IMG/VR virus record: IMGVR_UViG_2617271072_000003
Strand: one strand, 5' to 3'
Source of the DNA: a virus
Lineage: Duplodnaviria; Heunggongvirae; Uroviricota; Caudoviricetes
DNA length: 27,571 bases
A program made the position numbers and the translations under genes. The notes beneath the pieces were generated by a model. The model saw nothing but the letters and a program-made list of their open reading frames with translations, did no database searches and was not told where the DNA came from. Each line of letters starts with the position of its first letter. Position 1 is the first letter of the stretch. Of the stretch, positions 7,084 through 27,571 are shown piece by piece.

Positions 7084-7604
7084 ATGGAAGTCAACAAAAA
7101 GCAGCTGGCTGACATTTTCGGTGCGAGTATCCGTACCATTCAGAACTGGCAGGAACAGGGAATGCCCGTTCTGCGAGGCGGTGGCAAGGGTAATGAGGTG
7201 CTTTATGACTCTGCCGCCGTCATAAAATGGTATGCCAAAAGGGATGCTGAAATTGAGAACGAAAAGCTGCGCCGGGAGGTTGAAGAACTGCGGCAGGCCA
7301 GCGAGGCAGATCTCCAGCCAGGGACTATTGAGTACGAACGCCATCGACTTACGCGTGCGCAGGCCGACGCACAGGAACTGAAGAATGCCAGAGACTCCGC
7401 TGAAGTGGTGGAAACCGCATTCTGTACTTTCGTGCTGTCGCGGATCGCAGGTGAAATTGCCAGTATTCTCGACGGGATCCCCCTGTCGGTGCAGCGGCGT
7501 TTTTCCGGAACTGGAAAACCGACATGTTGATTTCCTGAAACGGGATATCATCAAAGCCATGAACAAAGCAGCCGCGCTGGATGAACTGATACCGGGGTTG
7601 CTGA

Positions 7605-7630: not shown

Positions 7631-11321
<3,691 letters not shown>

Positions 11322-14876: not shown

Positions 14877-15457
14877 ATGGCCATAAAAGGTCTTGAGCAG
14901 GCCGTTGAAAACCTCAGTCGTATCAGCAAAACGGCGGTGCCCGGTGCGTCAGCAATGGCCATTAACCGCGTTGCGTCATCCGCGATATCGCAGTCTGCGT
15001 CACAAGGTTGCCCGTGAGACAAGGGTACGCCGGAAACTGGTAAAGGAAAGGGCCAGGCTGAAAAGGGCCACGGTTAAAAATCCGCAGGCCAGAATCAGGG
15101 TTAACCGGGGGGATTTGCCCGTAATCAAGCTGGGTAACGCGCGGGTTGTCCTGTCCCGACGCAGGCGTCGTAAAAAGGGGCAGCGTTCATCCCTGAAAGG
15201 TGGCGGCAGCGTGCTTGTGGTGGGAAACCGTCGTATTCCCGGCGCGTTTTATTCAGCAACTGAAAAATGGCCGCTGGCATGTCATGCAGCGTGTGGCCGG
15301 GAAAAACCGTTACCCCATTGATGTGGTGAAAATCCCGATGGCGGTGCCGCTGACCACGGCGTTTAAACAGAATATTGAGCGGATACGGCGTGAGCGTCTT
15401 CCGAAAGAGCTGGGCTATGCGCTGCAGCATCAACTGAGGATGGTAATAAAGCGATGA
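14877..15457 (+). pseudogene. Z: tail completion protein gpZ, frame interrupted twice
   Basis: ATG 14877 MAIKGLEQAVENLSRISK...SQSASQ then stop at 15015-15017; middle of gpZ in ORF 14893..15321; C-terminus (FIQQLKNGRWHVMQ...MVIKR) in ORF 15200..15457. Shift points near 15004-15005 and the T4 run 15247-15250. Confidence 0.85.
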
Positions 15458-15852
15458 AACATACTGAACTCCGTGCAGCCGTACTGGATGCACTGGAGAA
15501 GCATGACACCGGGGCGACGTTTTTTTTGATGGTCCGCCCCGCTGTTTTTGATGAGGCGGATTTTCCGGCAGTTGCCGTTTATCTCACCGGCGCTGAATAC
15601 ACGGGCGAAGAGCTGGACAGCGATACCTGGCAGGCGGAGCTGCATATCGAAGTTTTCCTGCCTGCTCAGGTGCCGGATTCAGAGCTGGATGCGTGGATGG
15701 AGTCCCGGATTTATCCGGTGATGAGCGATATCCCGGCACCGTCAGATTTGATCACCAGTATGGTGGCCAGTGGCTATGACTACCGGCGCGACGATGATGC
15801 GGGCCTGTGGAGTTCTGCCGATCTGACTTATGTCATTACCTATGAAATGTGA
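15454..15852 (+). CDS. U: tail terminator protein gpU
   Basis: 132-aa ORF overlapping the Z stop; lambda U-like; contains a T8 run at 15520-15527. Confidence 0.9.
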
Positions 15853-16615: not shown

Positions 16616-17038
16616 ATGTTCCTGAAAACCGAATCATTTGAATATAACGGTGTGAGCGTCACGCTTTCTGAACTGTCAGCCCTGCAGCGAATTGAGCATC
16701 TCGCCCTGCTGAAACGACAGGCAGAACAGGCGGGATCCAGTCTCAATCGACAGGTGAGCGTGGAAGATCTCGTCAGAACCGGTGCTTTTCTGGTGGCGAT
16801 GTCCCTGTGGCATAGCCATCCGCAGAAGACAAAGATGCCGTCCATGAATGAAGCCGTTAAACAAATTGAGCAGGAAGTGCTTACCACCTGGCCCACAGAG
16901 GCAATTTCTCATGCTGAAAACGTGGTGTACCGGCTGTCCGGTATGTATGAGTTTGTGGTGAATGATGCTCCTGAACAGACAGAGGACGCCGGGCCTGCAG
17001 AGCCTGTTTCTGCGGGAAAGTGTTCGATGGTGAGCTGA
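16616..17038 (+). CDS. G: tail assembly chaperone gpG
   Basis: 140-aa ORF; lambda G-like; contains the slippery heptamer near its 3' end. Confidence 0.95.
   Translation: MFLKTESFEYNGVSVTLSELSALQRIEHLALLKRQAEQAGSSLNRQVSVEDLVRTGAFLVAMSLWHSHPQKTKMPSMNEAVKQIEQEVLTTWPTEAISHAENVVYRLSGMYEFVVNDAPEQTEDAGPAEPVSAGKCSMVS
17014..17020 (+). other. programmed -1 ribosomal frameshift site G GGA AAG (G to G-T fusion)
   Basis: GGGAAAG at 17014-17020 in the G frame; the -1 frame continues into the T ORF (17020..17454). Confidence 0.85.
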
Positions 17039-17454
17039 GTTTTGCCCTGAAACTGGCGCGAGAGATGGGGCGACCCGACTGGCGTGCCATGCTTGCCGGG
17101 ATGTCATCCACGGAGTATGCCGACTGGCACCGCTTTTACAGTACCCATTATTTTCATGATGTTCTGCTGGATATGCACTTTTCCGGGCTGACGTACACCG
17201 TGCTCAGCCTGTTTTTCAGCGATCCGGATATGCATCCGCTGGATTTCAGTCTGCTGAACCGGCGTGAGGCTGACGAAGAGCCTGAAGATGATGTGCTGAT
17301 GCAGAAAGCGGCAGGGCTTGCCGGAGGCGTCCGCTTTGGCCCGGACGGGAATGAAGTTATCCCCGCTTCCCCGGATGTGGCGGACATGACGGAGGATGAC
17401 GTAATGCTGATGACAGTATCAGAAGGGATCGCAGGAGGAGTCCGGTATGGCTGA
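17020..17454 (+). CDS. T: tail assembly protein T (expressed as G-T fusion via -1 frameshift)
   Basis: Open frame 17020..17454 with no independent RBS or ATG, overlapping the 3' end of G; lambda T-like. Confidence 0.88.
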   Translation: MFDGELSFALKLAREMGRPDWRAMLAGMSSTEYADWHRFYSTHYFHDVLLDMHFSGLTYTVLSLFFSDPDMHPLDFSLLNRREADEEPEDDVLMQKAAGLAGGVRFGPDGNEVIPASPDVADMTEDDVMLMTVSEGIAGGVRYG

Positions 17455-20026
17455 ACCGGTAGGCGATCTGGTCGTTGATTTAAGTCTGGATGCGGCCAGA
17501 TTTGACGAGCAGATGGCCAGAGTCAGGCGTCATTTTTCCGGTACGGAAACTGATGCGAAAAAAACAGCGGCAGTCGTTGAACAGTCGCTGAGCCGACAGG
17601 CGCTGGCTGCACAGAAAGCGGGGATTTCCGTCGGGCAGTATAAAGCCGCCATGCGTATGCTGCCTGCACAGTTCACCGACGTGGCCACGCAGCTTGCAGG
17701 CGGGCAAAGCCCGTGGCTGATCCTGCTGCAACAGGGGGGTCAGGTTAAGGACTCCTTCGGCGGGATGATCCCCATGTTCAGGGGGCTTGCCGGTGCGATC
17801 ACCCTGCCGATGGTGGGGGCCACCTCGCTGGCGGTGGCGACCGGTGCGCTGGCGTATGCCTGGTATCAGGGCAACTCAACCCTGTCCGATTTCAACAAAA
17901 CGCTGGTCCTTTCCGGCAATCAGGCGGGACTGACGGCAGATCGTATGCTGGTCCTGTCCAGAGCCGGGCAGGCGGCAGGGCTGACGTTTAACCAGACCAG
18001 CGAGTCACTGACGGCGCTGGTGAATGCCGGTGTGCGTGGTGGTGAGCAGTTTGAGGCGATCAGCCAGAGTGTGGCGCGTTTCTCCTCTGCATCCGGCGTG
18101 GAGGTGGACAAGGTCGCTGAAGCCTTCGGGAAGCTGACCACAGACCCGACGTCGGGACTGACAGCGATGGCACGTCAGTTCCATAACGTGACGGCGGAGC
18201 AGATTGCGTATGTTGCTCAGTTGCAGCGTTCCGGAGATGAAGCCGGGGCATTGCAGGCGGCGAACGAGGCCGCAACGAAAGGGTTTGATGACCAGACCCG
18301 CCGCCTGAAAGAGAACATGGGCACGCTGGAGACCTGGGCAGACAGGACAGCACGGGCATTCAAATCCATGTGGGATTCGGTGCTGGATATTGGTCGCCCG
18401 GACACTGCCCAGGTAATGCTGGAGAAAGCAGAAAAGGCTTTTGATGAGGCGGACAAAAAATGGCAGTGGTATCAGAGCCGGAGCCACCGGCGCGGTAAAA
18501 CCTCAGCATTTCTTGCCAATCTCCGGGGAGCATGGGAGGACAGAGCGAATGCGCAACTTGGGCTTTCAGCCGCCACGTTGCAGGCCGATCTTGAAAAGGC
18601 CAGAGAGATGGCAGCAAAGGACTGGGCCGAGTCTGAGGCATCACGGCTGAAATATACCGAAGAGGCGCAGAAGGCTTACGAACGGCTGCAGACGCCGCTG
18701 GAGAAATATACCGCCCGTCAGGAAGAACTGAACAAGGCACTGAAAGACGGGAAAATCCTGCAGGCGGATTACAACACGCTGATGGCGGCGGCGAAAAAGG
18801 ATTATGAAGCGACGCTGAAAAAGCCGAAACAGTCCGGCGTGAAGGTGTCTGCGGGCGATCGTCAGGAAGACAGTGCTCATGCTGCCCTGCTGATGCTTCA
18901 GACAGAACTCCGGACGCTGGAGAAGCATGCCGGAGCGAATGAGAAAATCAGCCAGCAGCGCCGGGATTTGTGGAAGGCAGAAAGTCAGTTCGCGGTACTG
19001 GAGGAGGCGGCGCAACGTCGTCAGTTGTCTGCACAGGAGAAATCCCTGCTGGCGCATAAAGATGAGACGCTGGAGTACAAACGCCAGCTGGCTGCACTTG
19101 GCGACAAGGTTACGTATCAGGAGCGCCTGAACGCGCTGGCGCAGCAGGCGGATAAATTCGCACAGCAGCAACGGGCAAAACGGGCCGCCATTGATGCGAA
19201 AAGCCGGGGGCTGACTGACCGGCAGGCAGAACGGGAAGCCACGGAACAGCGCCTGAAGGAACAGTATGGCGATAATCCGCTGGCGCTGAATAACGTCATG
19301 TCAGAGCAGAAAAAAGACCTGGGCGGCTGAAGACCAGCTTCGCGGGAGCTGGATGGCAGGCCTGAAGTCCGGCTGGAGTGAGTGGGAAGAGAGCGCCACG
19401 GACAGTATGTCGCAGGTTAAAAGTGCAGCCACGCAGACCTTTGATGGTATTGCACAGAATATGGCGGCGATGCTGACCGGCAGTGAGCAGAACTGGCGCA
19501 GCTTCACCCGTTCCGTGCTGTCCATGATGACAGAAATTCTGCTTAAGCAGGCAATGGTGGGGATTGTCGGGAGTATCGGCAGCGCCATTGGCGGTGCTGC
19601 CAGTGGTGGAGCATCCGCGTCAGGCGGTACAGCCATTCAGGCCGCTGCGGCGAAATTCCATTTTGCGACCGGGGGATTTACGGGAACCGGCGGCAAATAT
19701 GAGCCAGCGGGGATTGTTCACCGTGGTGAATTTGTCTTCACGAAGGAGGCAACCAGCCGGATTGGTGTCGGCAACCTGTACCGCCTGATGAGGGGCTATG
19801 CGGAAGGTGGTTATGTGGCGGTGCCGGAAGTCCGGCGCAGATGCGGCGGGCTGAAGGCATTAATTTTAATCAGAACAATCACGTGGTGATTCAGAACGAC
19901 GGTACGAATGGTCTGCCAGGTCCACAGATGATGAAGGCAGTGTATGACATGGCCCGCAAGGGTGCCCGTGATGAAATTCAGACACAGATGCGTGATGGTG
20001 GCCTGTTCTCCGGAGGTGGACGATGA
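17447..20026 (+). pseudogene. H: tail tape-measure protein gpH, frame interrupted twice
   Basis: ORF 17447..19330 (627 aa, MAEPVGDLVVDLSLDAARF...) stops at 19328-19330; gpH continues in frame 0 (ORF 19353..19889) and returns to the original frame in ORF 19841..20026 (...MRDGGLFSGGGR). The two shifts compensate over 2580 nt, but stop codons intervene. Confidence 0.85.
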
Positions 20027-26650: not shown

Positions 26651-26661
26651 GTGGGGTGAAT

Positions 26662-27571
26662 ATGGCAGTAAAGATTTCAGGTGTACTGAAAGACGGCACA
26701 GGAAAACCGGTACAGAACTGCACAATCCAGCTGAAAGCAAAACGTAACAGCACCACGGTGGTGGTGAACACGCTGGCCTCAGAAAATCCGGATGAAGCCG
26801 GGCGTACAGCATGGACGTTGAGTACGGGCAGTACAGCGTTATTCTGTTGGTGGAGGGATTCCCGCCGTCACATGCCGGGACCATCACCGTGTATGAAGAT
26901 TCCCGACCCGGTACGCTGAATGATTTTCTCGGTGCCATGACGGAGGATGATGCCCGTCCTGAGGCACTGCGCCGTTTTGAACTGATGGTGGAAGAGGTGG
27001 CGCGTAACGCGTCCGCGGTGGCACAGAACACGGCAGCCGCGAAGAAGTCAGCCAGCGATGCCAGCACATCAGCCCGTGAGGCGGCAACCCATGCGACTGA
27101 TGCTGCAGGCTCAGCACGCGCAGCCAGCACGTCAGCCGGACAGGCCGCGTCGTCGGCTCAGTCAGCATCTTCCAGCGCAGGAACGGCATCAACAAAGGCC
27201 AGTGAAGCATCGAAAAGTGCTGCTGCTGCAGAGTCCTCAAAAAGCGCGGCAGCTACCAGTGCCGGTGCGGCGAAAACGTCAGAAACGAATGCGGCAGCGT
27301 CACAACAATCAGCAGCCACTTCTGCATCCGCCGCGACCACGAAGGCGTCAGAAGCAGCCACCTCAGCCCGGGATGCGGCGGCCTCAAAAGAGGCAGCGAA
27401 ATCATCAGAAACGAACGCATCATCAAGCGCCAGTAGTGCCGCTTCCTCGGCAACGGCGGCAGGCAATTCCGCGAAGGCGGCAAAGACGTCTGAGACAAAC
27501 GCCAGGTCTTCTGAAACGGCAGCGGGACAGAGCGCCTCGGCTGCGGCAGGCTCAAAAACAGCGGCTGCGTC
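26662..27571 (+). pseudogene. stf: side tail fibre Stf, N-terminal part (frame interrupted near 26805; runs off the window end)
   Basis: ATG 26662 MAVKISGVLKDGTGKPVQNCTIQLKAK...DEAGR, then frame lost and stop at 26917-26919; the Stf-like sequence (Ala/Ser-rich, KTSETNA repeats) is open in the other frame from about 26811 to 27571 (hand-translated). Confidence 0.8.

Follow-up and report, generated by a model that had tools for sequence, protein, structure and literature searches.

The tape-measure gene of phage lambda encodes gpH (NP_040595, 853 aa), a protein with the Pfam domains TMP_2 and Tape_meas_lam_C, and it lies in the gene order V-G-T-H-M-L-K-I-J. Membership of the gpH family is judged by full-length homology, by gene position and by the presence of one uninterrupted frame. 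Nearer relatives of the DNA described here are prophages in two complete Escherichia coli genomes, fEC.1 (NZ_CP085638) and 13KWH46 (NZ_CP019250), in each of which H is a single open reading frame (ORF) of 2580 nt. Homopolymeric-tract length variation in high-throughput genome data is a recognized concern (PMC4746626), and the homopolymer errors of draft bacterial assemblies typically take the form of one-base changes in run length, private to one assembly, that produce false frameshifts and pseudogenes.

The DNA that we analyzed (the window, 27,571 nt) is the entire contig CBWN010000039.1 of the draft E. coli assembly GCA_000529855.1, and it covers the late region of a lambda-like prophage. 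A search of the literature and of the records returned no publication and no sequencing platform for this assembly (CBWN01). The late operon runs in the order Nu1, A, W, B, C, D, E, FI, FII, Z, U, V, G, T, H, M, L, K, I, J, lom, stf. As judged from the order of the ORFs and from the syntenic annotation of fEC.1, H sits directly 3' of the G/G-T chaperone pair and 5' of M-L-K-I-J, just as in lambda. The −1 frameshift heptamer of lambda G-T, GGGAAAG, is intact at 17014-17020, at the end of G (16616..17038), which overlaps T (17020..17454).

The H gene as written and as repaired

The lambda-type H gene spans positions 17447-20026 on the plus strand. An earlier note on this DNA had observed that the length from start to final stop is a multiple of three, and indeed it amounts to 2580 nt. 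As written, however, H fails to form a single uninterrupted frame and is represented by three ORFs. The N-terminal piece (17447..19330, 627 aa) is in the original frame and carries the TMP_2 domain (PF06791); the middle piece (19353..19889), 178 aa long when counted from its first ATG, is in the next frame and carries Tape_meas_lam_C (PF09718); the C-terminal piece (19841..20026, 61 aa), which can also be recognized from the annotation of fEC.1, is in the original frame again. The ORF list bore out the two stops that the note had placed at 19328-19330 and 19887-19889, the former being an early TGA that follows the frame change and the latter ending the middle piece, and it likewise agreed with the return to the original frame. 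On direct reading of the sequence, the shifted frame is open from 19290. The normal stop of H overlaps the start of M (20023).

When the H region was aligned to three close relatives, all differences were accounted for by two one-base indels and one substitution. The first indel is an additional A at 19310..19315 (plus strand), where A5 has become A6: the relatives read CAG AAA AAG ACC TGG and the window reads CAG AAA AAA GAC CTG G, which moves H into the next frame. The note had assumed that a lambda-like sequence needs A7 here. This was incorrect, because the sequence at this point in lambda (NC_001416), as in every close relative, is CAGAAAAAGACCTGG, with A5 followed by G, so the window contains one extra A and not a G interrupting a run of seven. 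The second indel (19814..19819, plus strand; G3 to G2) removes a G from GTGGGCGG after 19816, which leaves GTGGCG in place of the GTGGGCG of the relatives and brings back the original frame. The position given earlier for this change, 19800-19850, was loose, yet it included the base that the alignments identify. Between the two indels lie 507 nt of shifted reading, in line with the approximately 510 nt of H-like sequence reported before. The substitution, C to A at 19791 on the plus strand (CGG to AGG), is synonymous in the repaired H frame, and it is the only one on the contig relative to fEC.1.

Removal of the extra A and restoration of the missing G yielded one continuous frame encoding a protein of 859 aa that matches the intact H of fEC.1 (WP_074417142.1) residue for residue, while the nucleotide sequences showed one synonymous difference in 2580 nt. 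The repaired protein has not a single amino-acid replacement, and thus shows none of the decay that an old pseudogene would be expected to display. In the alignment to lambda H, a check that the note had called for, residues 1-859 of the repaired protein matched residues 1-853 of gpH end to end, with 89.5% identity and with both Pfam domains in common, so that the H of the window shows the full-length homology as well as the gene position of the gpH family. It differs from gpH in being interrupted, as written, by a +1 and a −1 single-base change. The C-terminal linker is also different (GGAGSPAQMRRAEGINF in the window versus TPGSMADSRSQASGTF in lambda), as it is in many other E. coli prophage variants. 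The underlying gene is most likely an ordinary lambda-type tape-measure gene, already known, and its failure to form a single frame is most likely attributable to sequence error.

Single-base changes across the contig

The 627-aa H fragment is on record for exactly one contig, CBWN010000039.1. At least six complete E. coli genomes, from various hosts and countries, contain the same prophage with 99.9% sequence identity, and H is annotated as one gene in all of them. We aligned the whole contig to two of these complete genomes, fEC.1 and 13KWH46, to whose prophage the 27.6-kb sequence is 99.9% identical. Over 27,571 nt, the comparison with fEC.1 revealed one substitution and 18 gap openings (27 indel bases), two of them in H and 16 elsewhere, whereas fEC.1 and 13KWH46 differed from each other by only one substitution and one indel.

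The gap openings comprise 14 insertions and four deletions. Thirteen of the 18 alter single-base runs of at least three bases, mostly by adding bases to A or T runs. The others are A1 to A2 at 15004, C1 to C2 at 15534, T2 to T1 at 26805, an AT insertion at 9980 and, if runs are counted in the window, the G3 to G2 loss in H, which leaves a two-base run. Five gap openings are intergenic and have no coding effect, and the remainder are spread over eight genes.

The consequences for the reading frames are extensive. On the plus strand, a T4 to T5 change at 7500 truncates Nu1 (nohD) to 148 of its 181 aa; the portal gene (9980..10445) has gained AT and seven T (T6 to T13) at 9980-9989, with a further T5 to T6 change at 10445, and its frame stops after 240 of 533 aa; and two +1 insertions in Z (15004..15247) bring a stop after 46 of 192 aa. 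In U (15526..15534, plus strand), two T and one C have been added eight bases apart. The net change of +3 keeps the frame and turns FDG into FLMV, which makes U the second locally compensated pair on the contig, besides H. A gene with a DUF1398 domain and a hypothetical gene are each frameshifted by +1, and stf, the side tail fiber gene, by −1.

The portal site is the contig's largest and least homopolymer-like discrepancy: at 9975-9998 the window reads GGGT-AT-C-T13-CC, as opposed to GGGT-C-T6-CC in the complete genomes. The gain amounts to nine bases, and T6 to T13 is large for a simple miscall. In this respect the contig differs from the usual one-base homopolymer errors of draft assemblies.

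A strand asymmetry was also apparent, in that 11 of the 14 events in A or T runs affect T runs on the plus strand. Runs of four or more bases are nearly equally common for the two letters on the contig (A, 143; T, 127), and the excess of T runs has a binomial P of 0.03. A technical bias of the sequencing platform might lie behind it.

As to the limits of the contig, its start (1-60) lies inside the DUF1364/rusA region and its end (26660-27571) inside the side tail fiber gene. Modules of both kinds recur among lambdoid prophages, and we infer that such ends fit a short-read draft. The complete-genome copies carry an IS3-family element in ren (fEC.1, locus L004, 982-2298), a gene upstream of the stretch represented in the window. 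In 13KWH46, the annotation of this prophage marks the Z-like tail gene as frameshifted (NZ_CP019250, locus L005, 19091): a G run there is one base shorter than in fEC.1 and in the window, either through a real change of independent origin or through a further error.

The earlier note was confined to H, and consequently the scatter of the same kind of one-base change over the contig was not visible to it. Because such changes also break Nu1, portal, Z, the DUF1398 gene, the hypothetical gene and stf, and garble U, we read the split of H as an artifact of an error-prone draft assembly, and we put the probability of this reading, which rests on sequence comparison, at roughly 90%. A contig-wide excess of one-base run-length changes that is private to one draft is a classic signature of consensus errors. 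Here the excess over substitutions relative to near-identical references was 18 to 1, and the altered runs were genic and intergenic alike. The consensus would have miscounted the length of short homopolymers, in most cases by giving a run of A or T one base too many, and two of some 18 miscounts would have landed in the 2.6-kb H gene, as an extra A in A5 and a missing G in G3. Being of opposite sign, the two would cancel, giving the look of two compensating frame changes. The origin of the indels would accordingly lie in sequencing or assembly, presumably not in the cell.

For the first H indel, a 61-nt query centered on the A run found the A6 allele in none of 3,582 complete E. coli genomes that contain the segment, the best match being 60/61 in each. 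Exact-pattern scans likewise gave no occurrence of A6 in IMG/VR, in the GTDB species representatives or in the JGI metagenomes; the A5 pattern, used as a positive control, was present in at least 120 IMG/VR contigs. For the second indel, we used an 81-nt query covering both 19791 and the G deletion. Among 1,958 E. coli genomes, its full-length matches all showed at least two differences, neither the C to A substitution at 19791 nor the G2 allele was present in any of them, and an exact-pattern scan of IMG/VR gave no match to the G2 allele. The two H indels are therefore private to one assembly among the collections searched, a property that was tested for these two, the other 16 gap openings having been compared with two genomes. 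Phase variation of H was considered and rejected, since the runs are short (A5, G3) and of constant length in thousands of genomes.

H is the longest but one gene on the contig, and with about 17-18 indel events in 27.6 kb it is expected to receive 1.7 of them. When the observed events were placed at random, two or more fell in H in 48% of the simulations, and two or more with a net in-frame length in 18%. The two H indels are H's share of the contig-wide events, and the compensated pair is not special. Compensation as a sign of selection was rejected for this reason and for another: a TGA stands five codons past the first indel, and the original frame holds eight stops across the shifted stretch, so that selection cannot explain the return of the frame.

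Other readings of the interrupted gene

The earlier note had rightly seen that a +1 and a −1 change cancel, and had rightly named an artifact and a defective prophage as the two possible outcomes; the evidence now strongly favors the former. If the indels were real, the prophage would be defective, H having been inactivated by replication slippage at A5, and an earlier or later slippage at G3 would have restored the frame by chance. We regard this as very unlikely. Both H sites do allow polymerase slippage, the lambdoid prophages of E. coli are in many cases genuinely defective, and cryptic ones with frameshifted tail genes exist, the Z-like gene of 13KWH46 being an example from the same prophage. 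Against this, the reading requires some 18 indels to have been fixed on a lineage with a single substitution, contrary to known mutation spectra. It also has to accommodate a return of the frame that brings no benefit, given the stops just mentioned, a repaired H that is 100% identical to the intact copies, and H alleles private to one draft among thousands of genomes.

The spectrum can be put in figures. Mutation-accumulation lines of mismatch-repair-defective E. coli, the background with the strongest known tendency to homopolymer indels, yielded 30,061 substitutions and 5,324 small indels, so that indels were 15% of point mutations and were outnumbered 5.6 to 1 by substitutions (PMC8510543). 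The observation of 16-18 indels with one substitution has, under this spectrum, a probability of about 1e-12 to 2.5e-14. In wild-type strains the indel share is lower still. A mismatch-repair mutator lineage was rejected on the same ratio.

The merging of reads from several similar lambdoid prophages of the strain into one chimeric consensus with indels is a sub-type of the artifact explanation and not a true alternative to it. Copies of the H segment per E. coli genome have a median of two and reach eight, and both contig ends lie in repeated modules (the rusA-side genes and stf), as such a collapse of repeats would have it. Nevertheless, such merging should leave mixed substitutions wherever the prophages are polymorphic, yet the contig has only one substitution, and most of the indels are in homopolymers rather than at sites that vary between prophages. 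This particular route to the artifact is consequently rather improbable.

We give still less weight to a real burst of homopolymer slippage almost without substitutions, caused for instance by a slippage-prone polymerase, which would have left H with a compensated double frameshift; this would be a very improbable event.

Least credible of all is programmed recoding, whereby full-length H would be produced by a ribosomal shift of +1 (or −2) near CAG AAA AAA GAC, followed some 507 nt downstream by a −1 shift back. The H sequence would be regained by a +1 or −2 shift at any point of 19290-19327, and −1 slippage does occur in the neighboring G-T genes, at the GGGAAAG of position 17014. However, the arrangement occurs in no other genome, every relative having one open frame, the searches for A6 and G2 gave no second occurrence of either allele, and elsewhere on the contig identical one-base changes interrupt genes unrelated to H as well as intergenic runs. 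Inspection of the sequence by eye showed neither H site to have a slippery heptamer of the X XXY YYZ type in the appropriate frame. The lack of conservation would appear effectively to refute recoding of H, which we consider next to impossible.

Implications for the prophage and its annotation

If the split is an assembly artifact, as we favor, the real H is most likely intact, its protein being identical to that encoded by the prophage copies of several complete genomes, and it would work as an ordinary lambda-type tail length ruler. The split H then matters as quality control only. The contig is unfit for inferring prophage defectiveness, pseudogene content or recoding, and the broken Nu1, portal, Z, H, stf and other genes should be treated as probable false frameshifts. 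Should the indels be real after all, the window would add one more defective lambdoid prophage, and nothing beyond that.
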